From positions 39,992,001 to 40,056,000 of the forward strand of contig CM119371.1 of the NCBI GenBank assembly GCA_051294905.1: DNA of 64,000 bases. The letters run 5' to 3'. Source of the DNA: Botryllus schlosseri (taxonomy: Eukaryota). Below, one piece after another: positions 11,809 through 60,349 of the stretch (the first letter of the stretch is position 1; each line of letters opens with the position of its first letter). The translations under genes were made by a program, and so were the position numbers. The notes beneath the pieces are model-generated. The model had not been told where the DNA came from, did no database searches, and worked only from the letters and a program-made list of their open reading frames with translations.

Positions 11809-11855
11809 TTCGCTAAAAGCTTTTCGACTGACCCACATCAGTAGCGAACGTCAGT
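11809..11855 (-). ncRNA. Minimal type I hammerhead ribozyme motif (degenerate: A9>U, UUU site)
   Basis: ACTGAC-G-TTCGCTA-CTGATGT-GGGTCAGTC-GAAA-AGCT-TT-TAGCGAA: 7-bp stem I and a palindromic stem III loop. Confidence 0.7.
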
Positions 11856-12016
11856 AATAGGGTGGATCAAATTCGAAATGTAAGAACTATTTTGCGTCTA
11901 TGACGTAATAATAACAGAAACAAACAACTAGTAGACGGGCTAGATACGGTAGTAACGGTACAAAACAAACGGTAACGAGTACATATGCAGTTATAAATAA
12001 TCGACAACACAGCACA

Positions 12017-13336
12017 CAGGCGCGTATCCAGAGCGCGAAAAAGGGAGGGGGTTTGCGTTACGAAATTGGCTATTGTGACGTCATCATTGCGATCACTCGA
12101 CTCCACGCCGTGGCGAATATTTATACTTTATTAATAAACAGAGATTTGCGGTGAGTGGGAGATGTACGAATACGATACAGACATTGCCTGAAAATCGCGT
12201 TTCTTTTACGGCACGATTGAAAGAAATTCGTAAATGCTCACATTTAGTCATGAGCCGGCAAACGCCGCCTGTCTTCAAGCGCCTAGCTCCGGCCAGAGAT
12301 GCGCGATTTTGTTGGGTTTTGACGATATTATGCGCACGGTCGGTAGTATCGCAGCGGACGAACAAGCGCGGAATAAGGCGGTAGCATAAACGAGGGCGAT
12401 CGCGATCGCCACAGAGAGGTGTGGTGTGAATAGTGTACGTCGTACACGAATGCGTGCTTTTCGATGGCTTTACTAGCCATACGGCTGAGCGTGTAGTACG
12501 CTCGAAGATAATTAGACTTTAATTGCAAGCACGCAAGTCAGTCAATTAATACAGAGTACACCCTGGGATAATAACTAGATCGACAGAGAAACTTGTCAGC
12601 AAATATAATTAGGTTAACTTTACTACTAGGCCTACTCAATTCTCCCGTTCAGCGACAACATAGGCCTGTATTTGGACGACAGCAAGCCACCTAACAATCG
12701 AGAACGTGGATTGCTAGGCTTGTATTTTGAAATGTGAATGTCAATCGTAGGCCATTTCTCGCCAAAAATCGCGAATACAATGTGGATTTGAGAATGGCAT
12801 TGTCGTAATGGTGCCGTCGTGTCTGCGTCTCGCTGATCAATCAACACGCCGTGCAATTCTTAATTACGATTTCAAGGCGAGCAGGTGGAGCGAATTCGCG
12901 AGCGATGTTGATTGCCGACAACTTCGTCTTTGCAATTACGTATCGCGTCGGCCAATTAGATTAGATTTTCCTAAAATGCATCTCTCGTTTTAGCAAGGCG
13001 AGAGAGAAATCGAGGGAAGAAAGTTGAGAACGTCAGCAACCGCCACAACTGAAATGTAGCTGACCATGACCAAGCGCAGAATTCGTATGGAATTAGCGAA
13101 TTATAATGAACTATTTTATCCTTTCGAGGCGCATAATTCCAATATTTTGTAGGGGTGTTAGTCCTTAAATAGCCCTTAAATAACATTAAGACGCCATATT
13201 CGCCTTCTCATACGTAAAAACGAGTATGTTAAACTGATAAATTAGCAAATATTAGAGGCTATATTTGACATTAAATTTTAGAATTTTGAAAAGGGGGGGT
13301 TCCGACCCCCTGAAACCCCCCCTGGATACGCCACTG
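12017..13336. mobile_element. hAT-type MITE inside Penelope 3' UTR
   Basis: CAGGCGCGTATCCAG...CTGGATACGCCACTG; perfect TSD ACAGCACA. Confidence 0.9.
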
Positions 13337-13349
13337 ACAGCACACAACA

Positions 13350-13784
13350 TTAATGAAATATTCCAAGGGTGTAGAGGCGTTCTTTCTGGCGACAGGGAAT
13401 CCACTTTCGCAGCTTTATGATCGTAGATTCTAGGACCTTAAAATGAAAAAGAGAACGGCCACGAGCAACTATAGAAAATTGACTGTCATTGTAATGATCA
13501 AGACATTCTGGATGGGATAAGAGATGCTGTCCAACAGCCGAATTACAAGCAGTAACTTGATCATAATCACGCAGTCTGTCAATAGACTGCGATGATGGAG
13601 TTGGAGAAACATTACTTATTCTAATTGGCCGTGGGATATGCTGGCGAATTCTTTGCTGCAAGCGCTGAGACGTGTGTCCTACATACCGACAGTCAAATCG
13701 GCACGTGTATTCATATATAATGTTGCTTTGATTTGTCGCAGGTAGCACATCCTTTCGCGTTGCAGGCATCAGAGATTTCGCCAT
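13350..13784 (-). pseudogene. GIY-YIG endonuclease fragment of Penelope-like element
   Basis: Motif match as above; strongly similar to the 26477-26968 protein. Confidence 0.85.
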
Positions 13785-14032
13785 GAAAATTGAACAGCAT
13801 CTCTTATCCCATTCAGAATGTGCTGATCATTACAATGACAGTCAATCATCTAAAGTTGCTCGTGGCCGTTCTCTTTTTCAAGGTCCTGGAATCTACGATC
13901 ATAAAACTGCGAAAGTCGATTCTCTGTCGCCAGAAGGGACGCCTTTACACCCTTGGAATATTTCATTAATCTTGTGTGCTGTGTTCTCGGTTATTTATAA
14001 CCGAATATGTGCTCGTTAACATTTGTTTTGTG

Positions 14033-14733
14033 CAGGGCTGGCCAACCTTTTCAGCCAAAGGGCCACATTTGATTGATGAATTTCTGCGCGGGCCATTATC
14101 CGCGCGAAGCGCGAATTCTTTTTAGAGTTCATATGTCAATAATATTGTCACTTGACTATATTGTGGGCCTGCTGTATATCGCTGGGCTAAGTTTCCGAGG
14201 ACTGGGCTATTCGGCGCATGGACATATCGATATCGAAAGCTGCGACCAACATGCGTCAATCATTTCGTGCCTAGGTTTCATAGTCGACGGTCTTACTGCG
14301 AGCTCAAACGCAAGGTCGCATATGTTGAAAGACACTTGTTCTCGTAATCGTGAATATAGTTAGACTGAATCTGATACATTGCGTGTTCTTCAATTTTCAC
14401 AAAAGGGCAACAATATTAAAAACAAGAAATCGAGTGACAACATATGGCGCTAAGCTTGTAAAAAATGTTTACCTCTGATAAATCTATCGCAAATTATTCT
14501 GCTTTATTGTAGTGTACGAAGATATACCAATATGTGAATGGTTGATGGATCTGTCAATGAGTCGAAACTGATATTTTAGTCATCACATCTCAGTGTTGCG
14601 GCCAGACCAATCAAATTTTTGGTTGTCCTTGCAAGTTCACAATCTGTGCAATCCAGTTTTGATGAGATTATAAATTTCGGAAATTACCTCGCGGGCCACA
14701 TGTGGCCCGCGGGCCACGGGTTGGCCGCCTCTG
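14033..14733. mobile_element. hAT-type MITE
   Basis: CAGGGCTGGCCAACC...GGTTGGCCGCCTCTG; TSD GTTTTGTG/GTTTTGTA. Confidence 0.85.
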
Positions 14734-14851
14734 GTTTTGTATCTTGCCTGTCTACTAGTTGTTTGTTTTTGTTATTATTACGCCATAGACATAAAATAGT
14801 TCTTACATTTCGAATTTGATTCACCCTATCACTAACGTTCGCTACTGATGG

Positions 14852-14990
14852 GCCGGGCATGGTATGGTATGGTATGGAACGAGAATTTTCCATACTCCAT
14901 ACTTGCCTTACTCGCTCCATACCATATTTGCAATTTTCCATACCATACCAACATTGTTCCATACCATACTTGATACATATTCCATACTTT
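14852..14990. repeat. CCATAC/TATGG subterminal-type array, probable MITE end
   Basis: (ATGGT)n followed by repeated CCATAC. It truncates the Penelope pLTR inside its ribozyme motif. Confidence 0.5.
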
Positions 14991-15369
14991 CAAATACTAA
15001 AATATCGTAAGTATATTTCCTATTCTAGGATGTCAATATTGCTTAAACTAGCCATGGTGCGAATCTAATTCCTGGTAATAGTTTTACAGAGTCTGTTTTG
15101 GTGAGGTTTAGTCCACGGTGGTGTGGTGCCGTGTAAGTCTACTCTATAGCTTCCGCGAGCAAAATGAGATAGTCAGCAGATTGTTATCTAGGACCGTCCG
15201 TAAAATGGACAGGTAACAACCCTTATGAATTGATATATCTTGGTGAATTTTGGGTACCGGACTTATGAAACGCTTTGAAATCTTAATTAAGGATTGCACC
15301 GTGAGTTAGTTGATCAGAGAGAAGCAAACATGGCTACGCCTGTATGACAATGCTGTTTTCAAATCCACA

Positions 15370-16790
15370 TGTCAGGAAATTTCGATGCTTGTGACCCAAA
15401 TGATGGTTCAGTACATAAAAACACTTATATGAGCAATTTTGGTCATCTTCGTCGTGATCTTCTATCCCCGAAAAGCCCCCAAAGATGCACGGGGCAATTC
15501 TCCTTACCGCTTGATCTGTAGTGTTGACGATGTCACCGGTTTATAGCTTTTGTGACGTTATCATTCGAAAACGGCCATGTAGAGACGAGATATTGCAATG
15601 AAATAGATATGTTTTCAAAATGTTATTCAAATGCAGTCCTGTAAAGGCCACATGCATCTCAGTTTTGCTCAGCAAAACCTCTCTGTCATGCTCATGGGAA
15701 TCATGTAGTAGTTGCACCATTGACATCGGCTTGATTTGGATCGTACATTGAAGAAGCACCATTGGGTTGCAATTCGTGAACAAATACTCTTATTCCCAGC
15801 TAGTTTTCAGCCATAAGGTATTATTCAAAGGTATGTAATGTCAGTAATACTTTTCCCAACTTCAAATCATCTGTAAAATACCGAGTTATCTTATTTTATG
15901 GTAGACTGCAATTTAGTTGAAGAAAAATGCCTGAAACAATGCATCAACACAATGTTCAGCGCTTGCCTTATAGATATTCTTGTCATATTCCATACGTTGG
16001 CAACCTCTTCAACAGTTAAAAGGACACAGTCCTGCGTTGTGGTAGTTTCGGGGCAATTTTCTTTTAGATATGGCAGATGAAGTAGAACCTCATCTAGAGT
16101 CGGTAACTTGGAGTGACTAATACACTCAGATAAATATCCGACGGAACAGGGACCAAAAAATCAGACCAAATAGTGGGCAGACCTGAATCTTGTTCATGGT
16201 TGGTCCGCAAAACCCATATCCGCTTTATTTAAGACATTTTTCTGCAACTAAATTGCAGTCTACCATAAAATAAGATAACTCGGTATTTTACAGATGATTT
16301 GAAGTTGTGAAAAGTAGTACTGACATTACATACCTTTGAATAATACCTTATGGCTGAAAACTAGCTGGGAATATCAGTATTTGTTCACGAATTGCAACCC
16401 AACGGCGCTTCTTCAATGTACGATCCAAAGCAAGCCGATGTCAATGGTGCAACCAATACATGATTCTCATGAGCATGATAGACAGGTTGTGCAGAGTGAA
16501 ATCGATATGCATGTGGCCTTAATAGGACTGCATTCAAGTACAATTTTGAAAACATGGCTATTTTATTGCAATATATTATATCGACACGGTCGTTTTCAAC
16601 TGATAACGTCACAAAGCTATAAACCGGTGTCGTGGTCAACATTACATATGCAGTAGTAAGGAGAACCCGTGGATCTTTTGGGGGTTCTCGGAGATAGAAG
16701 ATCACGATGAAGATGACTAAAATTGCCCATAAAAGTGTTTTTATGTTCTAAACCATCATTTTGGTCACAAGCATCGAAGTTTCCTGACAA
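15370..16790. repeat. Long inverted duplication (arms about 15370-15930 and 16232-16790)
   Basis: Arms are reverse-complementary with scattered substitutions, separated by a ~300-bp spacer. Confidence 0.9.
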
Positions 16791-17031
16791 TTTTTCAAAT
16801 CTGAACAACCCTTATGCACATGCAAGTTTGAAGTAAATACTCGCAAAATAATTAATAATATAGGCGCACACATAAAATATCCCAGCTACAGGCGATCAAT
16901 ACTGCAGCGATCTGCGTGATTATTATTACAACATGTGGTTGGTGTTATAGTGGCGAGAATTTCGAACTATGTCTATACCCCACTCCCTAATTTATAATCC
17001 TAATGGGAGAGCGTTTGAAATAGGCTATGAC

Positions 17032-17225
17032 CAATGTTCCCTCTAAGCTGCGCACGTGCGCAAATGCGCAGTGCTTTCACGGTATCTGCGCACAGAAAAT
17101 CTAAGTTGCGCACAAAAAATCCGAATTGATGACCGTTTCTTTAGTCGTCACGCACTGTTTTCCTAGGGTCTGCGCAGTGAGTTGGTTAGTGTGCGCAGAC
17201 TCATCAAAAATTAGAGGGAATATTG
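17032..17225. mobile_element. 194-bp hAT-type MITE (TGCGCA motifs)
   Basis: CAATGTTCCCTCTAA...TTAGAGGGAATATTG; perfect TSD GCTATGAC. Confidence 0.9.
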
Positions 17226-17350
17226 GCTATGACCAATAAGATATCTCGGTATGCAAATTGTATAAACGTGCGGAGCGGACAATGTTTCAGAAGAAATGTA
17301 ATTATCAATCGCATTGAGCAATTAGTACGTTGCATCATGATTGCTTGTGA

Positions 17351-17377
17351 CAGGGATATCTAGTCTAGATATCCCTG
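17351..17377. mobile_element. 27-bp TIR-only element
   Basis: CAGGGATATCTAG-T-CTAGATATCCCTG flanked by perfect 8-bp TSD GCTTGTGA. Confidence 0.85.
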
Positions 17378-17683
17378 GCTTGTGAGCTGTCGTCACTAAA
17401 GGAATGAGGTATAGTTGGAGTTGTCTAAACTGCCAATTATTGCGTCACATGATATAGACTATGCTCGGAGACGTCGTGTCTAGACTCAATAGAATATCAG
17501 ATCAACATTACTGTTGTCATTATTATATCAAAAAAATCATGTCATTTCAAGTGCTCCTAAAACCGTTGCACAAGCGCGTATTTGTACCTATATATCGTTC
17601 AATAGTTCATGTTCACACATAGCAAAAGCGGTCGTATTGAGTGAGCAGCGATCAACGTACGATTCATGAAGCTTGCACAGATC

Positions 17684-19703
17684 CAGACATGGGGTGATTA
17701 CTTCATGAATGTAATCGATTGCGATTACGATTACTTCGGAATCACGCGATTACGATTACGATTACGATTACAGCAAAATCAGGAAGTAGTCGATTACGAT
17801 TACGATTACATTGGAAAAGTAATCACGATTACTCACGATTACATTTATTTTGCATCTTAGTAGTTATATTTGAAGACAATACATGGATTGCGCTGAAAAG
17901 GCCTAACGAGATAACATATTTCTTAAAAACAGCCGCGACATTTGCTTGTTACGTCACAATGCACATATTGCCCATTTTATAAAGGACGATTTATCGCACC
18001 CAATGATTTGCATTATTGCCAGGTCCACAACTGCTGCACCTTAAATTCTCCAATAGGGTGGGGAGCGTGCTCGGAGGCGACTCAAGAGTATTTCGTGAAC
18101 CAACATAAATTATAGCGTATCCTCGACAGATTTCATTAACTTGAAAATTCTCTTTGAGCTTTGCCATTTAAATGTCTCTAGATAGCTTGATTTCGAAATG
18201 CAAACGTCTCCCCTCAAGAAATAAAGGATGCATAACTCATAGTAATAGGCATTATGGTGCCAGTCAATACCGCGCCCCGACACACCAAAATACATATGCA
18301 GTTTAGGCCAACATGCGACTCTACGAAGTGTGCTATCAAAGAAAGACGTTGGTGGAAATTTGGGGTATGTGTCCATTGTCGATAGCCGCGCTGGGTGGGC
18401 GTGACTAACAGTCCGGTCCTTCCAATCTGAGCCCACGATGCAAATGCCACGCAGGCACCCACAGAGCATTAGTCATGACAATTTGTGTGTGCGTCTCACG
18501 AAAGTTTTTCTTCTAGTCTGCTAAGTTTGGGCCACTACAATATCTTTTGTCTATATAACAGACCGGAGGTCACGAATTAACAACATGCACTACAGTAATT
18601 ATTGCAAGATACCAGATGTTATAATTATGGATTACGCGCCCCCTGCTCTTCAGGTAAGTCTGACCATCGGAGGCTGAGATAGGAATAAAAATGTAATATA
18701 ATGCAATTACCGATGTTACTGACGAAATTAAATCTTCAAGTTACAAATTGACTACCCTTTGGGGGCCCAAGACCAACGTTTGGAGAGGAGGACGATTTTG
18801 CTGTTTTGATCCTGATTCTAGCTACAACCCACGCTAACATGGTATATAAGCCGATGGCTATGGCGGCAGGTCCAAATCTTCAGTAAAGAATTGTGAAATA
18901 GCAATTGACGCCCGTTTTGAGTAGAATAATATGAGAATAAGAGCAGGTGAAAATAAAATTCTGCCTTCAACTTAATACAGATAATGTAATGCAAGCTGTC
19001 ATTACGAGAAACGGCAAGAAAACGGCGTGGTTATGATATGTATCAGCAACTGTTGATTTTTAATGCTTTGTTGTGGAAACCGTAATATTTTATTTGATGA
19101 GTACAAAATTTCAAATCTTTGTCTGGTGTACGTTCGTACCAGCACATAGGCCTACTGCTCGCCAAGCAGCAACGGTCAAATTGCGTTCAACTAAGCATAA
19201 CCAAACATCAATACAAAAGTTGCTATTTTAAACTAGGCAGAGAAGTGACTAATTATCCTGCAGCGAGGTAGTGGCGTCTGAAATATATTGATAACCCGAT
19301 ATACTGAACGGTGGGTGTTTTACAATCACACTAATGTACATCGACTATCTATTTACTATAAGTGTGGAATGTGGATACTTCTTACGCAAAGACGAGCACA
19401 GCTAATAAGCTACTTCTGACGTAATAATGAGCAATGGCATTTGAAAATCAGACGTTTGTGACTCAATAACTGGTATAATATCTCTTGCTTGTTAACGAAT
19501 GTTCAGTTTATGTCACAGTCGTCGTACAAATAAAAAGTAATCGTTCTTTCACAAAGAAATCGATTAAATATGCGAAGTAGTCGATTACGATTACGATTAC
19601 TTCGACATTTTTTCAAATGTAATCGATTGCGATTACGATTACTTGAAAATGCTGTAATCGTCGTAATCGATTACGATTACTAATCGCGATTACCCCATGT
19701 CTG
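17684..19703. mobile_element. TIR element with GATTAC subterminal arrays
   Basis: CAGACATGGGGT...ACCCCATGTCTG with (GATTAC)n at both ends. TSD not evident. Confidence 0.8.
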
Positions 19704-20774: not shown

Positions 20775-22913
20775 CAATGTTGGGATCAAGTCATTACCTT
20801 CGAGTCACGAGTCATTTCGAGTCATTGCACATTTTGACTCAAGTCAAGTCAAGTCATTCGATTTTTAGAGGTGTCAAGTCACGAGTCAAGTCGAGTCAAG
20901 TGAAGTCACGAGTCAAGTCGCAATTCAAGTCAAGTTGCCTTTTTGAAGAATAAGGCATGATTACGTCATTGCATTTTGCTAGCTGTCTGAATAATGCAGA
21001 TTAAGTGGTCATTGATTTTGAACCAGTGAACGAATATATACTTAAATTTACATGCATGAAGGCGCGGTATCGCTGCTGTATTGCTTACATATACGTAGCA
21101 CTGCTAAACTACGAAAGTAATTGCACAGCTTCAGTTTATAGCTACCGGCCAAAATAGAGAAACGAATTGATAAGATGCACTACATTACCCATTTACAAAT
21201 TGATATGATACAATGCGAGCCTACGCCAATGTTTGAGGACCATATAAGCCAGAGGTCTAAAACACGCGGCCCGCGGGCCGCATGCGGCCCGCGACGACAT
21301 TTTGGATTTTTATTAATTTGACAATATATAAGTGTCACATATATCTTTTCAGGTTATAAAGTGAATATTCCCTCTTAAATTACCCCGAAAGCCTGAAACT
21401 ATTCATCAAACATCACATCAGTATCACATCAATTGCAAACGGTGCCGCAGTGGAAGATTCACTATTTCGCCACATTTCCAATTCATTTTGACAAAACCTG
21501 ACCCTTAGACGATTCGTGACTGAAATTTGTGATTTGGACTTGGACGCGACCTTTTTTAGAATTACTCGGATTCGGGCTAACTCGATGGCGAAATGAAAAT
21601 GACTCGAGTGGACTCGAAATACCGTGAATTTGTTAGAACCATGGACGCAACAAACTAGTCGCGTCAAGGGGAATAGCAATAGATCAGAAGGTCACAGATT
21701 GGTATTTTGCTAACTAAGCAAGTAGTTTTGGCAACCATTGGCAATCTGTTAGTTACATCTTTGGTCGCTAAACCATATTATTAGGGTCACTCAAAGGTTC
21801 CGATAGTACCGTAGTGGTACGCTCCAACGATGTAACAACAATGGGTGTTCGACGTTCCGACATTTCAATCACAGCAATATATTTATATCATATTTATATT
21901 TTTCCTGCTCCTATTATGGAAGATATTTGGCCATGAGATTAATAGCCTACTTATCAGAAGTATACCCGAATCCTGGATTGGAATTACAATGATCAACCCA
22001 AAAATGTTTTGATATCAGATCAGTCTCTATTATCAATCTGTTAAATTCAAAATATTCACAGTTATAGCTGCAAAATTATAACCCGGTAGCTTTTATGATG
22101 GCATCATACGTTTGTCCGTTCATATGGTGTCTATATCTTATAATTAATATATATTATGTTTAATCATTGAGTTGAGTACAGCAACAATTCTATTCAAATA
22201 GTTTTAAATGTGATGATTCTTTTCGTGTCATGCCTAAATTGATACATTTTGACGATGTGTGTTTACTGTCAGTCTGGTGGATCGGCTCACTTTCAATAGG
22301 ACAATTCATTCCCGCCAAATAAGGCCTACTTGGAAAGACATAGAATACCCCTATAAATGATGCGGCCCGCGGCGTCGTCAGAACTGGAAAACTGGCCCGC
22401 GAGCACATTTGAGTTTGAGACCTCTGATATAAACTATATTCGAACTCGATTTCAATAAAACAAGAGGTTTGGTTAAGGTAAGAATAGAAAATATACATAG
22501 ACATTTTGTTATTGAAATACTTCACTATACTATAGTTTACAACAACGTATGCTGTAAGTCTGGATTACTTCGTTTGCGGTCAATTTATTTGTGAGAGAAC
22601 AGTGAAGGCTTAGTAAAACGCATGATCACTGAATGATTGGTTGCTCTCACGGGTTATACCAGCGGTTCGCAAACAATCCGAACATATGCAAGATACAATG
22701 ATTTTTATCGACATCGATTACTTGATGACTTGAAATTGAATCGTGAATTTTGCTCCGAGTCACGATGAGTCAATCCACGTTTCTGATACGCATAGTGAAG
22801 TCAAGTCAAGTCAAGTCATTTTAGCCAAGTGACTCGAGTCAAGTCTAGTCATATGAAAAAGATGACTCACGTCTGACTCGAGTCAAGTCATGACTCGAGT
22901 CATCCCAACACTG
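20775..22913. mobile_element. GACTCGAG-family hAT MITE with nested MITE
   Basis: CAATGTTGGGATC...ATCCCAACACTG; decayed TSD TTTTAACG/TGTCAACG. Homologous to 55469-56308. Confidence 0.85.
21250..22426. mobile_element. hAT-type MITE (nested)
   Basis: CAGAGGTCT...AGACCTCTG; TSD ATATAAGC/ATATAAAC. A related end lies at about 20410-20582. Confidence 0.85.
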
Positions 22914-24052: not shown

Positions 24053-24330
24053 GTCGCTATCGGAGATTGAGAGAGAAATGAACAACTAAACATTATCGAG
24101 TCACATACGCAATGAGATACACTTACACTATTAGTATCAATATCAAAATATAATATGGCGATATTGTGGCATTGGATCAGTACAAACAAATCCTTGCACT
24201 CTTAACTTCGTGAGATACAATTTTACAGTACAGTATTCGTCAAAGACTTTCACATACTTGAAGAGACTCTGTGGGGTACAGAACTTTAATATACATTTTA
24301 ATAATATATTCATAGTGAAAATATATTAAA

Positions 24331-24375
24331 ACCCGAAGCTTTTCGAGCTGACACTTTTCAAGGGCAATCGTCAGC
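24331..24375 (-). ncRNA. Minimal type I hammerhead ribozyme (U3:A8 core variant)
   Basis: Exact reverse complement of 27071-27115. Confidence 0.8.
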
Positions 24376-24477
24376 AAATGAAGAATTTCAAAAACATGCA
24401 TCTAGCTACATTGCATACAACCAATTATGACGTCATAGAAACAAACAACATGAAATACAGGCAAACCGCGAGCGCAG

Positions 24478-25986
24478 CTATTGGCCAATTTTCAGATTCA
24501 CTAAAAATTCCTTCTGCTGACACAAGCGCGGTCGGTGGATTTTAATATAAGTCGATTCCAGTGCGGACAGATGGAAATTAGTGCGGCCTCTGCCTAATAT
24601 AGAAAATCTTTCATCGCAATAGTTTTTAGCGCAAGTTGCATTCTCAGCCAAATGCTTGCCGATGGCAGAGTTCATAGCCATGGCCTGATTACGTTCTAGT
24701 AATCGCAGATCAGTTACGGCTGCGTCTTCGCGAGAGTCCAGTGTGCGTGATCTAATAACGCTCGGAACATGTTGTTAGATGCGTTCCTGCAAACGCTGAG
24801 TTGTTCTTCCCACGTACCGACAATCACAGTGGCACTTGAAATCATAGACTATATTGCTTTGTTGAGAAGCAGGAAGAACATCTTTGCGCGTTGCGGGAAG
24901 CAATTGTTTGGTGGTAAACACAACATTAGTTTTTACGTTATCGTAACAACGATTTACAGCAGAAATCAATTGCTTTTCAAACCGGGAAGAGATGGGGCCC
25001 AGCCACGGTAAATGTATATATACATTTTCCTCAGACCGTGTGTTCGTGTTTTGTGATTTGTTGGGATTGAAATTCCTGAGTTTTCTGTCAACAGAACTCT
25101 TGATGATGTGTTCGGGGTACCCGTTATCCATTAGAATTTTGCGGATATATTCTAGCTCCGCGTTTAATTTTTCCTCCGAACAAATCATCAAGGCTCTGTG
25201 CACCAACGTGCCAATCAAATTTAGTTTACGGCGATTTAGGCTAAAAGAATTCCAGCGTATATAATGCCCTGTAAACGTTGGCTTTTTGTAAATCGAAGTG
25301 ACAAAGCTAATACCCCGTTTTTCCACTAGAACGTCTAAGAATGGTAACGAGTTAGCACGCTCTTTTTCAAATGTGAATTTTAAAGACGAGTGTAGAGAAT
25401 TCAAGTTATCAAAAAAGTCATCGAACTCCGTCTCATTTTGACGGATAACGAAAGTGTCGTCGACATAGCGACGGTACATGAATGGAGGCTTGGTTTCATC
25501 TGCCGCGAAAAGTCTGTTTTCATGGAATCCCACAAATATATTGGCTAAAATCGGGCCAAGAGGGCTACCCATAGCTACACCGTCGGTTTGCATGTAGATG
25601 GTATCGTTAAAACTCAACTCAACAGAGCAAGTAGCCGTATTAAGAAGTTCAACGAACACTTTACGCGAGAAGGAAGGTGGTGCTAAATCACCACCACCAT
25701 ATAGCGCGTCCGCACAGATATCAATGGTCTCCTTCAGCGGCACGTTCGTGAAGAGGCTAACGATCTCATATGAACCGAGAAACATATTCGAGTTTGGAAG
25801 GTCGGTTGTTTTCATCTCGTGCGCGAATGTAAACGAATCAGCGACGCAATGCGAATCATACATGGAACGCACTGGCTCCAAAATACCGATAAGCTACTTC
25901 GCGAGCTTGTGCTGCACCGATCCAATCATAGAAAGAATTGGTCGAACGGGCACGTTGGTTTTATGAGTTTTCGGCAGTCCGTACAT
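24478..25986 (-). pseudogene. Penelope RT-GIY-YIG ORF, 5'-truncated, two nonsense mutations
   Basis: YGLPKTHK, SLFTNVP, GVAMGSPLGP, RYVDD, LPFLDV, IYKKPT, NIVY..C.C..YVGRT. Stops TAG (25894-25896) and TAA (24775-24777) read TGG and AAA in the other arm. Confidence 0.95.
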
Positions 25987-26054
25987 AAGACTCTTTGGGG
26001 TACAGAACTTTAATATACATTTTAATAATATATTCATAGTGAAAATATATTAAA

Positions 26055-26099
26055 ACCCGAAGCTTTTCGAGCTGACACTTTTCGAGGGCAATCGTCAGC
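26055..26099 (-). ncRNA. Hammerhead motif copy with U4>C core change
   Basis: As 24331-24375, but the core reads TCGAAAA. Confidence 0.7.
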
Positions 26100-26109
26100 A
26101 AATGAAGAG

Positions 26110-26968
26110 CTGTACGGACTGCCGAAAACTCATAAAACCAACGTGCCCGTTCGACCAATTCTTTCTATGATTGGATCGGCGCAGCACAAGCTCGCGAAGT
26201 GGCTTATCGGTATTTTGGAGCCAGTGCGTTCCATGTATGATTCGCATTGCGTCGCTGATTCGTTTACATTCTCGCACGAGATGAAAACAACCGACCTTCC
26301 AAACTCGAATACGTTTCTCGGTTCATATGATATCGTTAGCCTCTTCACGAACGTGCCGCTGAAGGAGACCATTGATATCTGTGCGGACGCGCTGTATGGT
26401 GGTGGTGATTTAGCACCACCTTCCTTCTCGCGTAAAGTGTTACGCTGGCCCCATCTCTTCCTGGTTTGAAAAGCAATTGATTTTTGCTGTAAATCGTTGT
26501 TACGATAACGTAAAAACTAATGTTGTGTTTACCACCAAACAATTGCTTCCCGCAACGCGCAAAGATGTTCTTCCTGCTTCTCAACAAAGCAATATAGTCT
26601 ATGATTTCAAGTGCCACTGTGATTGTCGGTACGTGGGAAGAACAACTCAGCGCTTGCAGGAACGCATCAAACAACATGTTCCGAGCGTTATTAGATCACG
26701 CACACTGGACTCTCGCGAAGACGCAGCCGTAACTGATCTGCGATTACTAGAACGTAATCAGGCCATGGCTATGAACTCTGCCATCGGCAAGCATTTGGCT
26801 GAGAATGCAACTTGCGCTAAAAACTATTGCGATGAAAGATTTTCTATATTAGGCAGAGGCCGCACTAATTTCCATCAGTCCGCACTGGAATCGACTTATA
26901 TTAAAATCCACCGACCGCGCTTGTGTCAGCAGAAGGAATTTTTAGTGAATCTGAAAATTGGCCACTAG
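26110..26968 (+). pseudogene. Penelope RT N-fragment joined to GIY-YIG by ~650-bp internal deletion
   Basis: Near-identical to the minus arm. It jumps from FSRKV (about 26440) to the sequence matching about 25000, removing YVDD. Confidence 0.92.
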
Positions 26969-27070: not shown

Positions 27071-27115
27071 GCTGACGATTGCCCTTGAAAAGTGTCAGCT
27101 CGAAAAGCTTCGGGT
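27071..27115 (+). ncRNA. Minimal type I hammerhead ribozyme (U3:A8 core variant)
   Basis: GCTGAC-GATT-GCCC-TTGAAAA-GTGTCAGCTC-GAAA-AGCT-TC-GGGT; predicted cleavage after UUC at 27111. Confidence 0.8.
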
Positions 27116-27268
27116 TTTAATATATTTTCACTATGAATATATTATTAAAATGTATATTAAACTTTCACATACTTGATATCATCCGATATATTCTACTAAG
27201 AAACAGAAGCACTAAGCAGCATCCACGTGACTCAATATGAATGCAATGGATTATAGTTGTGAAGTGCA

Positions 27269-28181: not shown

Positions 28182-29389
28182 GGAAAATTATATGCCAGTA
28201 AAGAAATACCAATTTGAAATAGTGTGCTGTGTCTTTTAGTTTGGTACGTTTGAGCGATTCTCTATTTTTTGCTATAGCATATACCAGTGTTGGGATGACT
28301 CGAGTCATGACTTGACTCGAGTCAGACTCGAGTCACCTTTTTCGTATGACTTGACTTGACTCGAGTCACTTTGCTAAAATGACTTGACTTGACTTGACTC
28401 GTCGTATCAGAAATATGGATTGACTCGTGACTCGGAGCAAAATTCACGAGTCAATTTCAAGTCATCGAATAATCAATGTCGATAGAAATCACTGTATCTT
28501 GCATATGTTCGGATTGTTCGCGAAACACTGATGTAATCCTTGAGAGAGACCAATCATTCAATAATCGTGCGTTTTACTGAGCCTCCATTGTTCTCTCACA
28601 AATAAATTGACCACAAACGAATTGATCGAAGCTTTCAGCTTACTTTGTCGAAAACTAGTAGTAAAGTGATTTAATAAAAAATTTCTATTTCTACTCCACG
28701 TTCTTACCTCACCCAAACCTGTTGTTTTATTAAAATTGAAATCGAATATAGTTTACACTCCTCAACCATTGGCGCAGACTCGAAGTGTATCATATCAATA
28801 TGTATAAATGGGTAATGTATTGCATCTCATCAATTCGTTTCTCAGTGGCGGCTCGTCCTATAGGGCAACTGGGGCATTGCCCCACCTAAAATTCTGTTCA
28901 ATAACAATTCAACCATTTATAGACGCACAGCAATCAATATATACCGAGATCACAGCGAAACCCGCGTTCTTCATGTGCTTTCGCTTGCAAACGCCCATAC
29001 ATAGCGAAGTCTCTGCGAAAATCGAATTCTCTTCTGTGTTTTCGCTTTGTGAATGCCTAGCCGGGGCTTGCCCCGGTAGCGCTCATAACAAGCTTTCACT
29101 ATCTATTCTCTCAAAGCCGCGCACAATAAAGAAACGGTGATTTACTCTCTCCTATTCGTAAAATGGCCGAGCAACCGGGGCAAATATGCCTACTCGCCCT
29201 TAAGGTGTGATGTAACAATCGTATCTATATCTGAACTCGGTTACCGTAATATGCGTAGAGTCGACCTTTGCTGGTATAGGTCGATTTTGACGGTGTTTCG
29301 CACCATGATAATTCTTGAAACTTGGTATGATATGTCGTGAAGGTAGTATTTAACACTGCTCCAAGTTTCAGGCTTGCTACTTAAAGATA

Positions 29390-42071: not shown

Positions 42072-42658
42072 GTAGCCAGTAAAATATGAAAAAAATTTGG
42101 GGTTGTTTTCCCACAGCTTTCTTCTTATATAGCAATGCTTCCTGGGTTGAAATAGAGCCGAAATTGGATCTCAATTTCCATCAAGCAGCCAGTAAAATTG
42201 AAAAAAAAAATTGAACAGCCAAATCGCAGCATGTCTTAGAAATCAATACTACAAGAAATCGAGTAAAAATGGACGTCATTACTTCTACTTTTACTGCAGA
42301 AACGATTTTAATCACTTTTACGTGTTTCATAGTTTTACGAATGCAATTTTACCGGAAATCGATGACAAAACGAACCAACTTGATAACGTGTTCTGTCATG
42401 GGGAACGGGAAGTAAGGTAGAACAAACAAAGCAGTCTCCCGGGAATTACAGCTATTAGATCTGCTGTCGCATGATCAGAGGGCTGATAGAAACTTGAATA
42501 ATATATTCATATCTAAATAAAACTGACACTCGCCAGGGGTGATCCTTATGATCTAGTAAAGATTTCAAAAGCAATTTGTAGCTTATATCATCAATCGTGG
42601 CGTCATATTTTGTGATACGATTGTTGATATCGAATTTTCCTTCTAATTCCTGCTAGTT

Positions 42659-42703
42659 GCTGACGATCACCCCTGATGAGTGTCAGCCGAAAACGTTTAG
42701 GTT
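42659..42703 (+). ncRNA. Minimal hammerhead motif in small foldback element
   Basis: GCTGAC-GATC-ACCC-CTGATGA-GTGTCAGCC-GAAA-ACGT-TT-AGGT. Confidence 0.7.
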
Positions 42704-43758
42704 CGTTTCAATATGATTATATTATTCAAGAAAAGAAATTCCTTACCAAATTAACTATTGCACATTACGCAGTCGATTGCACCGCGCTACGTAACGTCCT
42801 GATGAAGCGATAAATATGCCGATGCTCCGTCTCTCGCCTGTCGTAATCCGACGGCACACGATCGCGCTGCAATGGAGATTGAAAAAAATCGCGTGTTAAG
42901 TCTTGTTATCGTATTGATAAATCGAACCTTGGCAGGTTACTCGCAAACATTGTCTGTCGGGCATCAAAACACAGCGCAGACTTGGGGGCAACAAATTTTC
43001 AGATTTTCTAAATTAGATAGAATTATTGCTATACAGGAAAGTCTTTATCCGTATTTGACTCGAATTAGAATTATAGCCACACGTTTTTTCCCGAATTAGA
43101 TCAGAATTATAGGTAATATCTTTTTCAAATCAGATTAGAATTACGATTGTAACTAGTTTTTTCTTCAAGTCACGTTAAAATTAAAATTGCATCTACAGTG
43201 AATTCCAAATTAGATTAAAATTAGAATTAGAATAATAGCTACATTTTTCCAAGTTGGATTAGTATTAGAATTATAGCTATTATATTTTTCTTCAAATCAG
43301 ATTAGAATTAGGTTTAAAACTAGTTTATTTCCAAATAATGTTGGAATTATATTGCAGCTACAGTTTATTCCAAATTAGAATAAAATTAGAATAATAGCTA
43401 TAGTTTTTTCAAATTAGACCGGAATTTCATTTTATAACTAGTTTTTTCTTCAAATTGAGTCCATTGAAATCAGAGTCCATTCTCATAAGTACGAGAATTG
43501 CAAATGTCAGTGCACAGAAAAATGGGCTCAATTTGCAGTGTATAGTTCTCTGTAAACCAGAAATTAGGCCAATATCACAATTAGATCATTGAAACCTCTT
43601 ACATATCAGATTAGAATCAGATTGACGGTATCCGGCTTTAGAATTAAGTAGCTGTCCGAGTTTGCTGTTAACGATCTTGATGTGATGCAAAAAATTGTAT
43701 CGTGATTACAGTTTGGCGGTGCTGGACCTAGCACAAGTCCTCAAATAATATTATGAAC

Positions 43759-44738: not shown

Positions 44739-45353
44739 CTATGAACTATTAAAAATCGAAATAATCTCACTGTCAAAGGATGCTTTTTTTCATCAAAAAT
44801 TTCCATAGTCTTCTTTTCACTGTCCCATTTTTCGATGAGGTGATAAACAGCTAATGCCATGCTGTATAGACAGAAAATATGAATGGCAACATTATTGGGT
44901 AACGGAATTAGTTTCAACTCGTGCCTGATATTGCAAATTGACTATGGTTCACTTGAATCAAAATCTAGTGTTAATTCCAATTATTGGAGTCGCATAGCGA
45001 GAGATGAGTTTTGAGAGAACTGAATTATCGAGTCACAGTGTTGACAATCGGAAATCGATGACAAAACGAATCAGCTTGACAACGTGTCCTGTCATGGGGA
45101 TCGGGAAGTAAGGTAGGGCAAACAAAGTAGTCTCCCGGGAATTACAACTATTATCATGTTATCGCATGATAAGCAGGCCAACAGAAATTTGAATATTATA
45201 TTCATACTGAAATAAAACTGACACTCACCAGGGGTGATCCTTACGAACTAGTAGATTTTTCAAAACAAGTTTGTAGCATATATCAGCAATCGTGGTGTCA
45301 TATTTAGCGATACAATTGTTGATGCACATGTTCTTTCCAATTCTCCGCTAGTT

Positions 45354-45398
45354 GCTGACGATTACCCCTGACGAGTGTCAGCCGAAAATGTTCAGGTT
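45354..45398 (+). ncRNA. Minimal hammerhead motif, duplicate copy
   Basis: GCTGAC-GATT-ACCC-CTGACGA-GTGTCAGCC-GAAA-ATGT-TC-AGGT. Confidence 0.7.
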
Positions 45399-53334: not shown

Positions 53335-54072
53335 TAATTAGTGATGATGTGTAGAATTTTGATATATCATCATATAAAACCACACCTAGTTCAGCGTTGC
53401 TCATATTATCCGTGAAAATACAAAGTCCTAAATACACATAATAATAATATCTGGCGAATATAGCCTTGCATATACATCATAGTTTTTGGTTATCATGACA
53501 ATAACTGGTTTCCGTTAGCGAAGTGTTATTGCAGATATAAATACGCACATAAACCAAATGAATTCAAATTCACATTCACAGAAATGTGTTATCTGAGAGC
53601 TCATATTATCCGCGAAAATATAAAGTCCTAAATACACATATTAAAAGGACTGAATCGTATGAAATGAGTGGACTTTTTACTATATTTGCTCCTAACATTA
53701 TAGCAGCACCCGACGCAGCTTACATTATTATGTTATAAGACAAAATTATCGCCGAGCAATACCGATTTTGCGTAAGTTCCGTTATGCGTTTGACTACTTT
53801 ACTACGGATTAATATTATGTTGATCGCGCGACATGTGCGTAGAATTTTAATACATCAGAAAAAAACCACGCATAGTTCAACGTGGATGAGTGTTGTCTGA
53901 GAGCTCATATTATCCGCGAAAATACACAGTCCTAAATACACATAATAGAATATCTTGCGAATATAGTCTTGCATAGACATCATAGTTTTCTGAATTTGCT
54001 CATAAATACACGAGGCAATAGTCTAGCGGTGAGCGATGAACATACAGTCCTAAATACACATAATAGAATATC
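53335..54072. repeat. Irregular tandem duplications
   Basis: GCTCATATTATCCG.GAAAATA..AGTCCTAAATACACATA near 53399, 53599 and 53903; partial copy at 54045. Confidence 0.75.
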
Positions 54073-55468
54073 TAAGGAAAGTATCATCTAACGTATAATG
54101 AATGTTATTTATTTCTCGGAAGCATGGACCGGGCATAGTCCAACGTTAATTATATTATGAGAGTGTTTACATTCTAAATAGCCTGAGGGGCGGGGCGCCA
54201 AACGATTCAACCTTCACTACTCATGTCCACCTTGTCACGATGGACGCAATTTTTAATAGAATATTGATTGTTTTTGCATCGTTTGTGGAATAGGATTTGC
54301 TAGTGGACAACTAAAATCACACAACTTCATTTGAAGAAATCGCTTTTCATTTTCGTAAATCAACTAGCTGCTTTTTCTGCGGGATTATTGCTCGATTTGT
54401 TAGGATGCCATATCTGATTTTCATTGTCACTAGTGCATATTGATCAGCTGTTAAAGAAGTTAAAACGTCTGTAAGTCGCGTATATTAGTCTTCAGGCCTT
54501 TTTCAAAATATTTATGAAGTTCTTCTTTTGCAACACCTTAAAAATTGTTCGCGGCACACCTGAGAATCTGTGGTGGCACACAGGAATTACTGGGCTACAG
54601 ACTCAATACAAACTACTGTATTTTCAAAATGCGCAACTAGGACTAGACTACTCGCTTTACAAAACTCACAAACATAGAACACAAACTAGAACCCACAACC
54701 TTTGAAAATCCGCAACTAACCAAGTAAGTAGACTCAAGTCTAAAGCAACTCCTTAATTTTCATAATAGCCTAACGGTTTTGCACGCGAGTACTAGTTTAA
54801 AATGAGAGTTTCGACCCCCGAAAGCTATACCCAGTTATGCCACCGTTAGTAGTGATGACTCTGAGCTAGAAATGGCTGCAAGAACATCACGCAACAGAAC
54901 AATGGTTGCGCAAAATAACAGCAGCTAGTTCACCGTCAAAGAACTAGATTGATAGTTTGTACAAGTCTGGTCGAGTCCAAGTCTACATGGATTGAATGTA
55001 TGTTTGGCATCGGACAGAGTTTTATCGAGATGGCATTGATACATAAACAAGGAATCTGACGACCCACGACTGTGTTTGCGACTTTCTTCTTTTCAAAATC
55101 TGGAAAAAGAAATCATTTCCGCACGCCGATAACTAAAAAATATCGTTCTGCACTTACCTTTCACTTTGAACATGTGCAAAAAGATGGTTTCTGTTTGCAG
55201 GTGGTCGGAAGGGGGATGGTAAAAATCTTGCAAAAATATAAAGATAAATTCAATAACAATTTAAACAACAGCGAACGTACCACTTTACTATGTCACTACC
55301 TTCGAGTCAAAAGTCATTGCACATTTTGAATCGAGTCAAGTCACTAGTTTTTGGAGTTGACTCAAGTCAAGTCCAGTCAAGTCACCAGTCAAGTCAAGAT
55401 TCAAGTTAAGTTGAATTTTAGAAGTATGAGTGATGATGCTAAGTGATTACATTTTGTTAACTGGTTGA

Positions 55469-56308
55469 CAGTGTTGGGATGACTCGAGTCATGACTTGAC
55501 TCGAGTCACCTTTTTCGTATGACTTGACTTGACTCGAGTCACTTTGCTAAAATGACCTGACTTGACTCGGCGTCTCATAAATGTGGATTGACTCGTGACT
55601 CGGAGCAAAATTCACGAGTCAATTTCGAGTCATCAAGAAATCGATATCGATAAAAATCATTGTATCTTGCTTCTTGCATATGTTCGGATTGTACGCGAAA
55701 CGGTGGTGCAACCCATGAGAGCAACCAATCATTAAATGATCGTGCGTTTTACTGAGCCTCCGTTGTTCTCTCACAAATATATTGATCGCAAACTAAGGTT
55801 ATATAGTCCTCAACCACAGGCGCAGGCTGGAATTGTATCATATCAATTTGTAAATAGGTAATGTATTGCATCATATCAATTTGTTTCTCTATTCTCTATT
55901 TTGGCTGGTAGGCCTAACTATAATGCGAGGTCATGCAATTACTTACGTAGTTAAGCATTTCTACGTATATGTGAGCAATAAAGCCCCTTCTTGCGTTTAT
56001 ATTCAACTCTATATTCGTTCATAGGGTCAGAATCAATAATCACTCAATCTGTATCTCAGAAAGCTAGCAAAATGCAATGTCGTAATCATGCCTCATACTT
56101 TGAAAAGGCAACTTGACTTGAATTGTGACTTGACTCGTGACTTGACTTGACTTGACTCGACTTGACTCAAGTCACCTCCAAAATTCGAGTGACTTGACTT
56201 GACTCGAGTCACCTTCGAAAATCGATTGACTTGACTTGACTCGAGTCAAAATGTGCAATGACTCGAAATGACTCGTGACTCGAAGGTAGTGACTTGATCC
56301 CAACACTG
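55469..56308. mobile_element. Young 840-bp GACTCGAG-family hAT MITE (self-nested)
   Basis: TIR CAGTGTTGGGAT; perfect TSD CTGGTTGA. Confidence 0.95.
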
Positions 56309-56413
56309 CTGGTTGAAGGGTAGATTTAATTGACCAATTATCTTGAATCAAATAACGAATACGGTATATATAAATTTAAATAGCCTATACAAGCAAAATG
56401 ACGTTGTATAGAT

Positions 56414-59038
56414 CAGTGGTTCTCAACCGCCGGTCCGCGGACCGGTGCCGGTCTGCGACGACATTCCTGCCGGTCCGCCAGGTAAATTACGACATTGCAT
56501 TTTGCTAGCTGTCTGAGATACAGATTGAGTGGTTATTGATTCTGACCCTATGAACGAATATAGAGTTGAATATAAACGCAAGAAGGGGATTTATTGCTCA
56601 CGTATCCGTAGAAATGCTTAACTACGTAAGTAATTGCATGACCTCGGATTATAGTTAGGCCTACCAGCCAAAATAGAGAACAGAGAAACGAATTGATATG
56701 ATGCAATACATTACCTATTTACAAATTGATATGATACAATTCCAGCCTGCGCCTGTGGTTGAGGACTATATAACCTTAGTTTGCGATCAATATATTTGTG
56801 AGAGAACAACGGAGGCTCAGTAAAACGCACGATCATTTAATGATTGGTTGCTCTCATGGGTTGCACCACCGTTTCGCGTACAATCCGAACATATGCAAGA
56901 AGCAAGATACAATGATTTTTATCGATATCGATTTCTTGATGACTCGAAATTGACTCGTGAATTTTGCTCCGAGTCACGAGTCAATCCACATTTATGAGAC
57001 GCCAAGTCAAGTCAGGTCATTTTAGCAAAGTGACTCGAGTCAAGTCAAGTCATACGAAAAAGGTGACTCGAGTCAAGTCATGACTCGAGTCATCCCAACA
57101 CAGTCAACCAGTTGACTCGAAATGACTCGTGACTCGAAGGTAGTGACTTGATCCCAACACTGCTGGTTGAAGGGTAGATTTAATTGACCAATTATCTTGA
57201 ATCAAATAACGAATACGGTATATATAAATTTAAATAGCCTATACAAGCAAAATGACGTTGTATAGATCAGTGAATTACAATTTTATACCTTAAATTCAAG
57301 ATGCACTGTAAAAGGCTGGTCCATTGATCAAATATATAAAACATTAAATTTTAAACTGATTCAGAACTTCTTGAGGTAACACTAGGGCCGAAAACATGTT
57401 CGATTTGACATAAAGTTCAAGACGTGCCATTTGACGACATGCGAGCGACAAGTACTGAACAGGTACGAGCTGACTCATCGCTAAACAGCGCAGTTTGCGC
57501 GAGCATTCGTCTTCGATTCATTCATTCTGTGCAGGACCGTAACCGGGGCACCCCAAACCGCCTAATAGGAGAAGGGCCGAGCTTGAAAAGAACCCGAAAT
57601 TATTTTGGAAATGAACATCAGGGTTGTATCCAAGTCATAAGGTTCCGGGTCACAAGTCAATCTCACTTTTTTAGTTTTGACTCGAGTCAATTCGAGTCAT
57701 TTTCAATTCACCACCGAGTCAAGTCCGAGTCCAAGTCACTGAGTAGACTGTCGAGTCCGAGTCATAGTGTTTTGACTGCAGTCCGAGTCCAAGTCATTGT
57801 GTGCGGACTTTCCAGTTTCGAGTTAATGTCATGTGAGACCCAGTTTTCACAACTCTACCCGGTGATATCAAATGCTTCTCATTCATAATATCTTCATTTT
57901 CGTCACTTTTAACAGTTTCAGGTAGCATTTTCAAGTGCCAGTATGGACAGACGAAATAATATCAGCGTGATAACTTTACTATTCTTCGAAATTGCAATGA
58001 AATGCCCGTCTTGGTAGACCCAGTCTCGAGTCATATCACTCGGTCCGAGTCATGTGCAATGACTCGAGTACAAGTCGAGTCAATACACAACCATGATGAA
58101 CATAAATCATAACGTATTTATTTGAAACTTTTCCCAACATTTTTCAATTTGTTTTCGCTCTTTGCGCGATTTAGTGACACTAAATGTTTTGCATCTTAAG
58201 TGCCCGTCTCCGAGAAATACGCATGATTTATAGAAATAGGCATTTGGGCGTCAGCCATTACCGCGCCATGACGTACCAATACAAAATAATGAAGATTAGG
58301 CTAACATGCGACTCCGAAAGGCGTGCCAAAAATACGGCAGCGAGAAAACCGATTCAGTCATGAATGGTGGTAAATTTGCGCTATTGACGCAATTGAGCTA
58401 CTTAAACTCTTTGCTTACACTGAGTAGAATGAATGTGCCCAGAAAGGTGAAAACATCCTCCCAACTGTGGCTTTATCGCCCTGTGGAGCACAAGATCAAC
58501 GCTTTTGGGGGTGGGCTTACGAAGTGCTTTTTCGGCACGGATTGCCGGTATAGTTACTGTAAGGTGTTTTCTTGGGTCACGCATTGTATTCGTAGTTGCC
58601 AGAGTAGCCTATGCGTCCAGTGCCAGTGGGCAATGAGCAAGGTAGCACGACAAGGTGCTTGGTTCGACTCCGAAACGCTTCTTGTATCGATATTGTCAAA
58701 GAGATGAATATTATTCGAGTTGGCGTGGTCCGTTAAACCCACGGCCTTCGGCACGAAAGACTGTAAACGACTCTCGATGGTAGCACTTTTAACTGGATAA
58801 GGCAATTTTACATCGACTCAGCAGACTGACTACCATAAAATCACATGGATGCCATCGTGAAGATAATTAATCACGATCAAAACCCTCTAAATGTCACTCT
58901 CTATCATCATATAACTGCAAAAAACGGTTGCATGCTTTACATTTTGGCTTAAATTTCAATTTTGAAAGTTCACCGGTCCGCCAGTCATTTTTTTGAAATT
59001 TTACCGGTCCGCGAGGTGAAAAAGGTTGAGAACCACTG
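56414..59038. mobile_element. hAT-type MITE (CCGGTCCG motifs) with internal insertions
   Basis: 15-bp TIR CAGTGGTTCTCAACC; perfect TSD GTATAGAT. Confidence 0.92.
57619..58095. mobile_element. GACTC-family MITE
   Basis: CAGGGTTGT...ACAACCATG; perfect TSD ATGAACAT. Empty site near 1990. Confidence 0.85.
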
Positions 59039-60305
59039 GTATAGATCACGCACCCCAAGAACTGATGATAAAATACATGAATAACTGTATGTATACCTAC
59101 ATGCTAGAGTCTGTTATTATCAGTCGATATATAGGACCGAATACGAAGCCACGAGAAGTTGATCAGATTAGTTTGATTAGTCTGATTAGTGTTGTTAAAG
59201 GTGAGCACTGCGCAATGTAAGCACTGAGCCGTCTAAGAAACAGAGATACGTTTCTATTAGAATAATATATTGCTACTACGACAAAGTATACTGTGATTGT
59301 TTCGTTTGTGGTCAATTTATTTGTGATGTAACAATGGATGATCAGCAAGACGTACAATCAGTGAATGACTGGTTGCTCTCACAAGTGACACCGGCATATT
59401 GCAAACAACTCGAACATACATAAGATTAAGTGATTTAATCGACACCGTTTACTTAATGACTTGAAATTGACTCGTACATCTTGCTCAAGTCACGAGTCAA
59501 TCCACATGTTTGAAGCGCACGAGTCAAGTCTAGTAATCTCATTTTAGCAAAGTGACTCGAGTCAAGTCATACGAAAAATTTCACTCGAGTCAAGGCATGA
59601 CTCGAGTCATCCCAACACTGATATGATCCTACTCTACACCAGCCAATTTGTGAGTTAGGAGCATCGAATTTAAACTCGGTATACTTTACGAATAACGCCA
59701 TAAGATAAAAATTTGTTAATCAAATTATGGAAGATCTACACGCAGCTATGTTTGATCTTGACATTGACTTTGTGGACTTGACTTGAGCCTATTCAAAAAT
59801 GAGAAATTTATTAAATGCATTTTGAATACAGATATTTTCGACTGACACTCGGCCCTGGTAATCGTCAGGATCTAGTGGAGAATCGGGGGGGGGGGGGGGG
59901 TATTGTATATCAGCATTGTATCATAAAATATGACGTCGCTAGCATGAAAATTCAAATGATCCAGCCAAATGGCTGGCCCAAGCTCAATCTCAATGTACTA
60001 TTTTTTAGACTATGGTATACACTGCATTGAATCTCAGCCCTTTGTTGAAATAGGCACATATCTTGCATGATGGGAACCATTCTCAAGTGACAACTAAGAT
60101 TATTGATTTAAAATGTCTTTGCTCACTGTTAACAAGTGACACAGTGCAAGTGCTTTACCAACAGACTATCAGTCAACAAGTCCCGGTAAAAACATGAGGT
60201 CAAAACATTATACACTGCACACCAATTACAATATAGTGACTAGTGACGTCATATTTTGTGATACGATTGTCGGTATACGATGTTCTTCCCAATTATCTAC
60301 TAGTT

Positions 60306-60349
60306 GCTGACGATTAAATCTGACGAGTGTCTGCCGAAAATATCAGGTT
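60306..60349 (+). ncRNA. Degenerate minimal hammerhead motif in pLTR-like fragment (60240-60365)
   Basis: GCTGAC-GATT-AAAT-CTGACGA-GTGTCTGCC-GAAA-ATA-TC-AGGT; homologous to 42595-42720. Confidence 0.6.

Follow-up and report, generated by a model that had tools for sequence, protein, structure and literature searches.

Seven hammerhead ribozyme motifs, in which a hexamer lying upstream of stem I is complementary to loop II, are found in a 64,000-nucleotide (nt) stretch of the Botryllus schlosseri genome (contig CM119371.1, positions 39,992,001 to 40,056,000; "the window"), a repeat-rich region with 39.6% guanine plus cytosine. We regard them as real, and as a structural variant under selection of a ribozyme already known, carried by a known class of elements, the Penelope-like retroelements; self-cleavage is predicted from the sequences. 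The interpretation that we think probable is that they are type I hammerheads of the terminal repeats of one Penelope-like clade, in which a pseudoknot between the hexamer and loop II braces the core and the cut, made only in dimers, is predicted to fall shortly before a start codon.

All seven motifs are present at the positions given by the original prediction (Table 1), and the layout described there holds in outline. In each of them the order is hexamer, stem I, core, G10.1, a loop II of 7-8 nt, C11.1 and GAA, after which come a short stretch complementary to itself, position 17 and the second (3') strand of stem I; the hexamer, however, does not adjoin stem I directly, being set apart by a spacer, so that it ends 8 nt before C3 in all seven. 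The hexamer and loop II are matched by six Watson-Crick pairs out of six in six copies, and by five out of six at 60306. Although all had been taken as minimal hammerheads, a strict hammerhead descriptor is passed by two of them, 24331 and 27071, the other five being decayed; two matches to this descriptor combined with a 6 base pair (bp) pseudoknot compare with a mean of 0.01 and a maximum of 1 in 100 dinucleotide shuffles. These two copies, as well as the majority letters of family C (see below), carry the type I core, with positions 3-9, G12-A13-A14, A15.1-U16.1, H17 and a paired 3-8. The cut expected after C27111 is correctly placed at position 17, and the U3:A8 pair noticed in one family is that of family B, a variant already published for Penelope hammerheads (PMC4209133).

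The seven motifs do fall into three families, A, B and C, but correspond to about four insertions, and four further partial copies had been missed. The three family B copies lie within one insertion, flanked by a 16-bp target-site duplication; 42659 and 45354 sit in a duplicated segment (82% identity); families B and C, which are related at 76% over 84 nt, have the hexamer in common. Because the copies are not independent, and B and C share the hexamer, the covariation previously proposed (GCTGAC/GTCAGC vs ACTGAC/GTCAGT) amounts, within the window, to a single pair change, between A and B/C. Decay takes different forms: 11809 has a U at core position 9, a C.A mismatch affects 2.1-1.1 in both 42659 and 45354, and at 60306 little of stem I is left and U16.1 is missing. 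In two contig sets the majority letters of family C are G at 45394 (70% and 86%), by which stem I is restored, and A at 45390 (97-99%), by which the palindrome becomes perfect; the family is very abundant in public contigs, and its contig depth, about 2 million versus less than 100 in the flank, does not give a true number of copies. Most copies in the genome, five of the seven described here among them, are decayed passengers. About 100 nt 3' of the duplicated C copies, at 42799 and 45484 (+), a core-like CTGATGA is found with a nearby CG(A/AA) and no domain II, which may be due to chance or to a deleted motif.

The window alone would be too thin a basis for the selected structural subtype originally proposed; support comes from outside families and from restriction to one clade. 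To this end, 85 loci, collected by protein alignment alone and hence blindly to RNA shape, were scanned together with the window, without requiring a pseudoknot. At least five contiguous Watson-Crick pairs, at a spacing of 8-9, are shown by 11 of the 17 matches with a short domain II and by none of the 48 long-domain matches, a set which includes chance matches and two misparses. Of the six short-domain matches devoid of the pairing, two are family D copies that differ by a single change in the loop, a third has had its upstream portion replaced, a fourth is a family G copy in which the spacing is 11, and the remaining two probably arose by chance. A genome collection contributed 5 loci, three of them with a hammerhead motif, each with a long stem II, while a protein-based scan of viral contigs found none of 42 stretches to be related.

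Four added families, D, E, F and G, share the layout but have other hexamer and loop sequences: TCTGAC:GTCAGA in D, ACAATT:AATTGT in E and GCATT:AATGC in F, with G consisting of two copies, each one letter off a form with C-G at position 3, the change at this position being present on both strands of the pairing. Since MAFFT misaligned families E and F, placing their cores onto the A-D hexamer, pairs were counted by anchoring on the core. All six pseudoknot positions feature at least two Watson-Crick pair types across the seven families; the chance probability of the pairing is 0.006-0.014 per family, and the hexamers of A-D could pair with the loops of E and F at only 2-3 of the six positions. 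The open-ended stem I, as had been claimed, differs in sequence and yet pairs, over 4-7 bp and covarying in the same register in all seven families, although the family C copies of the window are mismatched as described above. A self-complementary segment of 6-11 nt for stem III is kept in 7/7 families, with two central U.U in F; stem II has 1 bp (at most 2) and no unpaired base, the pair being A10.1-U11.1 in family E; the spacer, stem I included, spans 8-11 nt. G5, A6, G12, A13, A14 and a non-G at position 17 are conserved throughout, and the 3-8 pair of family D is U3.G8. The base right after the pseudoknot strand is a G in all families (an A in one of the two G copies), which could form an extra G.U pair in B, C, D and G, and finds no such partner in A, E and F.

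A complementarity of this kind could, in principle, be accidental, or a relic, for example of a duplicated core, as the hexamer and the next two letters resemble CUGANGA in B-D; the single pair change within the window and the MAFFT placement of the E and F cores would agree with such an origin. However, E and F pair with sequences unlike the core, G alters position 3 on both sides, the long-domain matches are devoid of such pairing, and the upstream CUGACGA, when read as the core, gives no stem I and was rejected as a candidate. This explanation is therefore largely refuted, and we consider it very improbable.

The distribution of the pseudoknot follows the phylogeny of the host elements. In a tree of reverse transcriptases (RT) comprising 92 rows, 55 of them unlabelled, built by a quick method without bootstrap and with P0004 as a stand-in for family A, the 9 pseudoknot rows are split from the 28 long-stem rows by one branch, with a Shimodaira-Hasegawa-like approximate likelihood ratio test (SH-aLRT) value of 100. 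Labelled Penelope elements outside the clade have the usual long stem II and no hexamer:loop pairing, and the motif of L028, detected afterwards, lies inside it. The Penelope/Poseidon clade is told apart from Neptune and Nematis by a C-terminal GIY-YIG domain and the lack of a CX2-5CxxC linker finger; six homologues inspected by eye feature a C-terminal endonuclease and no such finger; the tree is without named reference elements. Taken with the outside families, confinement to one RT clade supports a selected structural subtype.

Many features are shared with the published Penelope terminal-repeat hammerheads, namely type I topology, location in a terminal repeat, a palindromic stem III, a short stem I, U3-A8 variants and the G10.1-C11.1 pair. 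The published motifs differ in that helix II is long and position 9 is followed by an additional unpaired base, and the accessible parts of these reports describe no pseudoknot; a 1-bp stem II is absent from the rows compared of a published 56-motif Penelope alignment. A single G10.1-C11.1 pair, and a 6-bp pseudoknot acting as helix II with its partner strand 5' of helix I, are found in the PK hammerhead (Zhan et al. 2024, PMC11300833, PDB 8YDC, as excerpted), which has in addition a 5-bp helix IV, an AUA4 triplex linker, a stable stem III and non-canonical end pairs. In contrast, the 8-11 nt spacer of the Penelope motif is too short for helix IV and linker, and its stem III is palindromic. 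A helix IV drawn by eye around the hexamer would have 3-5 mostly wobble pairs in B, C and F, and none in A, E and G, and is not claimed here. According to the available text of Perreault et al. 2011 (PMC3088659), about 40% of hammerheads have a pseudoknot between stem I and stem II, and one example, in which a 6-bp pseudoknot accompanies a 1-bp stem II, was tested, with compensatory rescue; that example is a metagenomic type II hammerhead, whereas the Penelope motif is of type I.

Viral sequences provide closer forms of the brace. Among 121 viral loci fitting the short-loop core pattern, 28 distinct ones were parsed as type I, 11 of which have a pseudoknot of at least 5 pairs. In six of the 11 the spacer measures 16-18 nt and a helix IV is present, in two the spacer is longer, and three are compact, their stem III having 6-7 bp. 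The compact ones (L095, L185 and L200, from phage contigs) have no helix IV, a stem II of 1 bp and, 7-11 nt upstream, a pseudoknot of 5-6 bp; as their stem III is a hairpin they would need no partner, unlike the Penelope motif, for which they are natural monomeric controls. The compact brace is, therefore, not new in itself. No published description was found of its combination with the palindromic stem III of an animal retroelement, the likeliest source, Lünse et al. 2017, lying outside the comparison; nor was the motif found in the accessible portions of PMC6765202, PMC10085705, PMC7936874, PMC11722881 and preprint 10.64898/2026.07.22.740005. Rfam reported no hammerhead in the window at E<=5, thus missing all seven motifs; the original prediction had expected consensus CUGANGA searches to overlook the subtype in part. 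The miss is not specific to it, however, because the hammerheads of 10 tested loci, canonical Penelope ones among them, were missed as well.

How the ribozyme may work can be outlined as follows. The pseudoknot would form and stand in for both a long stem II and a loop-loop contact, stacking on the single stem II pair and fixing the position of stem I, in the manner of the PK hammerhead structure (PMC11300833, in the part available). Stem III would form between two copies via the palindrome, as in other Penelope hammerheads, which cleave only as dimers (PMC4209133). In energy calculations, nested monomer junctions without the pseudoknot range from +1.7 to +8.6 kcal/mol (seven correctly parsed rows), hexamer:loop duplexes from -2.1 to -9.3, and most stem III self-duplexes are favourable; the junction value of the L028 copy of G, for which stem III had been taken one base too long, is disregarded. 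The N-terminus of the open reading frame (ORF) is encoded 3' of the motif, 3-21 nt from the predicted cut across families: the ATG follows after 21 nt in B and F, after 14 nt in C1, and after only 3 nt in D as well as in the G copy of L004. The start of transcription would lie near the hexamer, and a probably slow cleavage, which the element's protein may assist, would trim a short capped leader off the downstream copy of a tandem, yielding a capped leader of ~40 nt and a 5'-OH RNA starting just before the AUG. Since genomic copies retain both sides of the cut site, the reverse-transcription template would have to be uncleaved at the 3' repeat, or re-ligated.

The hexamer-loop helix might also function as a switch, either as a plain hairpin that arises early in transcription and holds the core inactive or as a guard against mispairing between loop II and core. 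The minimum-energy fold of B and C1 monomers is indeed a hexamer-loop hairpin without stem I, and loop II can pair with the core in A, C and G (-3.4 to -5.4 kcal/mol). The calculation found no such mispairing in B, D, E and F, however, and the helix, as a pseudoknot, can coexist with stem I. Moreover, its length and its position beside G10.1-C11.1 match the PK hammerhead structure (PMC11300833, same part), and the compact phage forms, with their stable stem III, share this geometry, so that we hold a switch to be improbable.

A start of transcription near the hexamer is suggested by the promoter region. A TATA-like box lies 43-48 nt 5' of C3 in four of the seven family representatives (D, E, F and G), as opposed to 1/24 canonical motifs, 5/24 of which have it at 33-38 nt; the read consensus of family C has one at about -46. 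The usual TATA-to-start spacing being ~30 nt, transcription would start about at the hexamer, and this would explain the lack of helix IV. A further possibility, tentative and in our view rather doubtful, is that the clade gained a microbial-style brace by an upstream shift of the start of ~10 nt, with the first six bases clamping loop II; the result would be a fast, dimer-gated ribozyme which takes the capped leader off tandem copies alone and thereby controls translation of the element's protein. In a single case, the family B repeat at 26108 (-), the repeat begins 9 nt before the hexamer, near the predicted transcription start, and is preceded by two unmatched letters.

Three raw RNA runs, chosen by species label, neither show nor exclude cleavage. 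In one single-cell run the family B motif is covered at a depth of 100-186 on one mate orientation, which we take to be the sense strand from the library chemistry, versus 14-29 on the other. Family C reads come from both orientations, with no molecule ends. A-rich loose ends past the ORF-start tail were found in 11 and 44 reads, at a place where DNA contigs have five As; the A-tailed reads stop ~55 nt past the predicted cut, behind ATTAAA and near the ends of genomic copies (27161 onward; runs X22 and X24), and polyadenylation inside the start of the next ORF is possible. A set of 104 loose ends at 45393 was considered as a sign of cleavage and rejected, since the alignments end where, at 45394, the window copy departs from the rest of the family. 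Six reads of run X24 depart from the reference right after 27111, continuing in family-like sequence ~18 nt on; a single genomic copy in which a deletion begins at the cut site may be their source.

These data have to be weighed also in view of a fold which is selected but remains mainly uncleaved, as a 5' leader for translation initiation or a protein-binding site, with cleavage incidental or rare. The lack of RNA ends at the cut, the A-tailed reads located ~55 nt past a family B motif that is apparently uncleaved, and the deviant 3-8 pairs in B and D are in keeping with this. The Anolis Poseidon hammerhead (Frangieh et al. 2024, PMC11167929, in the portions available) likewise lies at a terminal repeat/ORF-start junction with no RNA-seq reads ending at the cut, and its mutants left insertion in vitro unaffected; it differs by a long stem II, a start codon within the ribozyme and proven protein-assisted cleavage. 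In the available part of a study on chryso- and fusariviruses (PMC13725137), type I hammerheads with a helix II of 0-2 bp, just before the ORF, aid translation; these are RNA viruses, their helix III is long, no tertiary contact is reported, and a catalytic point mutation abolished the translation effect, which argues against a mainly uncleaved fold. The same is true of the conservation of G5, A6, G12, A13, A14 and non-G 17 in all families, of a palindrome kept despite differing sequences, and of the finding that most expressed copies are dead. Standard short-read libraries, besides, capture ribozyme ends poorly. Overall, an uncleaved leader appears unlikely.

Several observations weigh against the pseudoknot-braced, dimer-cleaving hammerhead that we favour. 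The RT tree has the methodological limits given above; the register of E and F depends on core anchoring, and, these being sister lineages, their changes at pseudoknot positions 4-6 may be single events. Family F pairs at 5/6 positions, the two G copies show one wobble and one mismatch, the core is weakened in B (U3:A8) and D (U3.G8), and in family B reads the C3 and G8 variants occur at unequal fractions, 10% and 35%, of contig depth. A TATA box is found in 0/3 window representatives, and the TATA position range was picked after looking, so that the computed p-value is optimistic. None of the three RNA runs shows a pile-up of molecule starts or ends, and read coverage of family B continues across its cut site; a different Penelope element was able to insert in vitro without hammerhead cleavage (PMC11167929, same portions).

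As for the host elements, the Penelope-like link already made in the original prediction is borne out: RT and GIY-YIG remnants adjoin families A and B, with Pfam matches below the curated cut-offs, and 833 longer homologues were found, the best at 63% identity. Family C, with no ORF nearby in the window, is homologous to B. The family B insertion consists of a same-strand tandem plus an inverted truncated copy, a layout described for these elements in the accessible part of PMC8557442. In family A the predicted cut lies 19 nt before the decayed ORF start. The gap of 1.5 kb between ORF end and hammerhead in this family is due to the insertion of two elements, at 12019-13332 and 14032-14735, which have short terminal inverted repeats and short flanking duplications and split the family A untranslated region (UTR) copies.

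Other repeats are found in the window. A remnant of a retrotransposon without long terminal repeats at 9820-11298 (+), with a zf-RVT match and a C-terminal nuclease-like region, is presumably of the R4/Dong-like class and is unrelated to the 11809 hammerhead. An abundant family resembling miniature inverted-repeat transposable elements (MITEs), with TGACTCGAGTCA-rich inverted ends, occurs at 5248-5360, 22533-22913, 28281-28657, 55456-57116 and 59300-59626.

Table 1. Hammerhead motifs and associated Penelope-like features, in window coordinates
Feature	Positions	Strand	Remarks
Family A hammerhead	11809-11855	-	pseudoknot strand from 11855; stem I 7 bp; core from 11841; predicted cut after 11816
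Family A element, GIY-YIG endonuclease end	13350-13826	-	89% identical to P0004; 3' UTR separated from hammerhead by later insertion
Family A 3' end, inverted partial copy	13789-14850	+	MITE-interrupted; stops within hammerhead core, partial motif at 14831-14850 (+)
Target-site duplication of family B insertion, left copy	24246-24261	+	16 bp
Family B hammerhead (U3:A8), intact	24331-24375	-	predicted cut after 24335; ATG 24313
5'-truncated Penelope RT + GIY-YIG coding remnant	24481-25986	-	between two same-strand family B hammerheads
Family B hammerhead	26055-26099	-	core change U4>C
Family B endonuclease end, inverted copy	26414-26968	+	
Family B hammerhead, intact	27071-27115	+	predicted cut after C27111; ATG 27133
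27071 copy, hexamer	27071-27076	+	
27071 copy, stem I	27081-27084	+	with 27112-27115
27071 copy, core	27085-27091	+	
27071 copy, G10.1	27092	+	
27071 copy, loop II	27093-27100	+	
27071 copy, C11.1	27101	+	
27071 copy, palindrome	27105-27110	+	
Target-site duplication of family B insertion, right copy	27161-27176	+	
Family C hammerhead, decayed at 1.1	42659-42702	+	inverted partial copy at 42523-42571 (-)
Family C hammerhead, decayed at 1.1 and stem III	45354-45397	+	inverted partial copy at 45218-45268 (-)
Family C hammerhead, heavily decayed	60306-60349	+	inverted partial copy at 59834-59886 (-)

Penelope hammerheads have been described as slow, and in one study insertion in vitro could do without them. 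A tertiary brace that is specific to one clade and preserved by matched changes shows that the active fold is under selection, in a motif which is very abundant in this genome and missed by Rfam. The pairing offers clean disrupt-and-rescue mutants, by which cleavage, dimer dependence and an effect on translation can be addressed. If the proposal of a brace gained by an upstream start of transcription were true, these elements would provide a better handle on the role of Penelope hammerheads than the slow ones tested so far.

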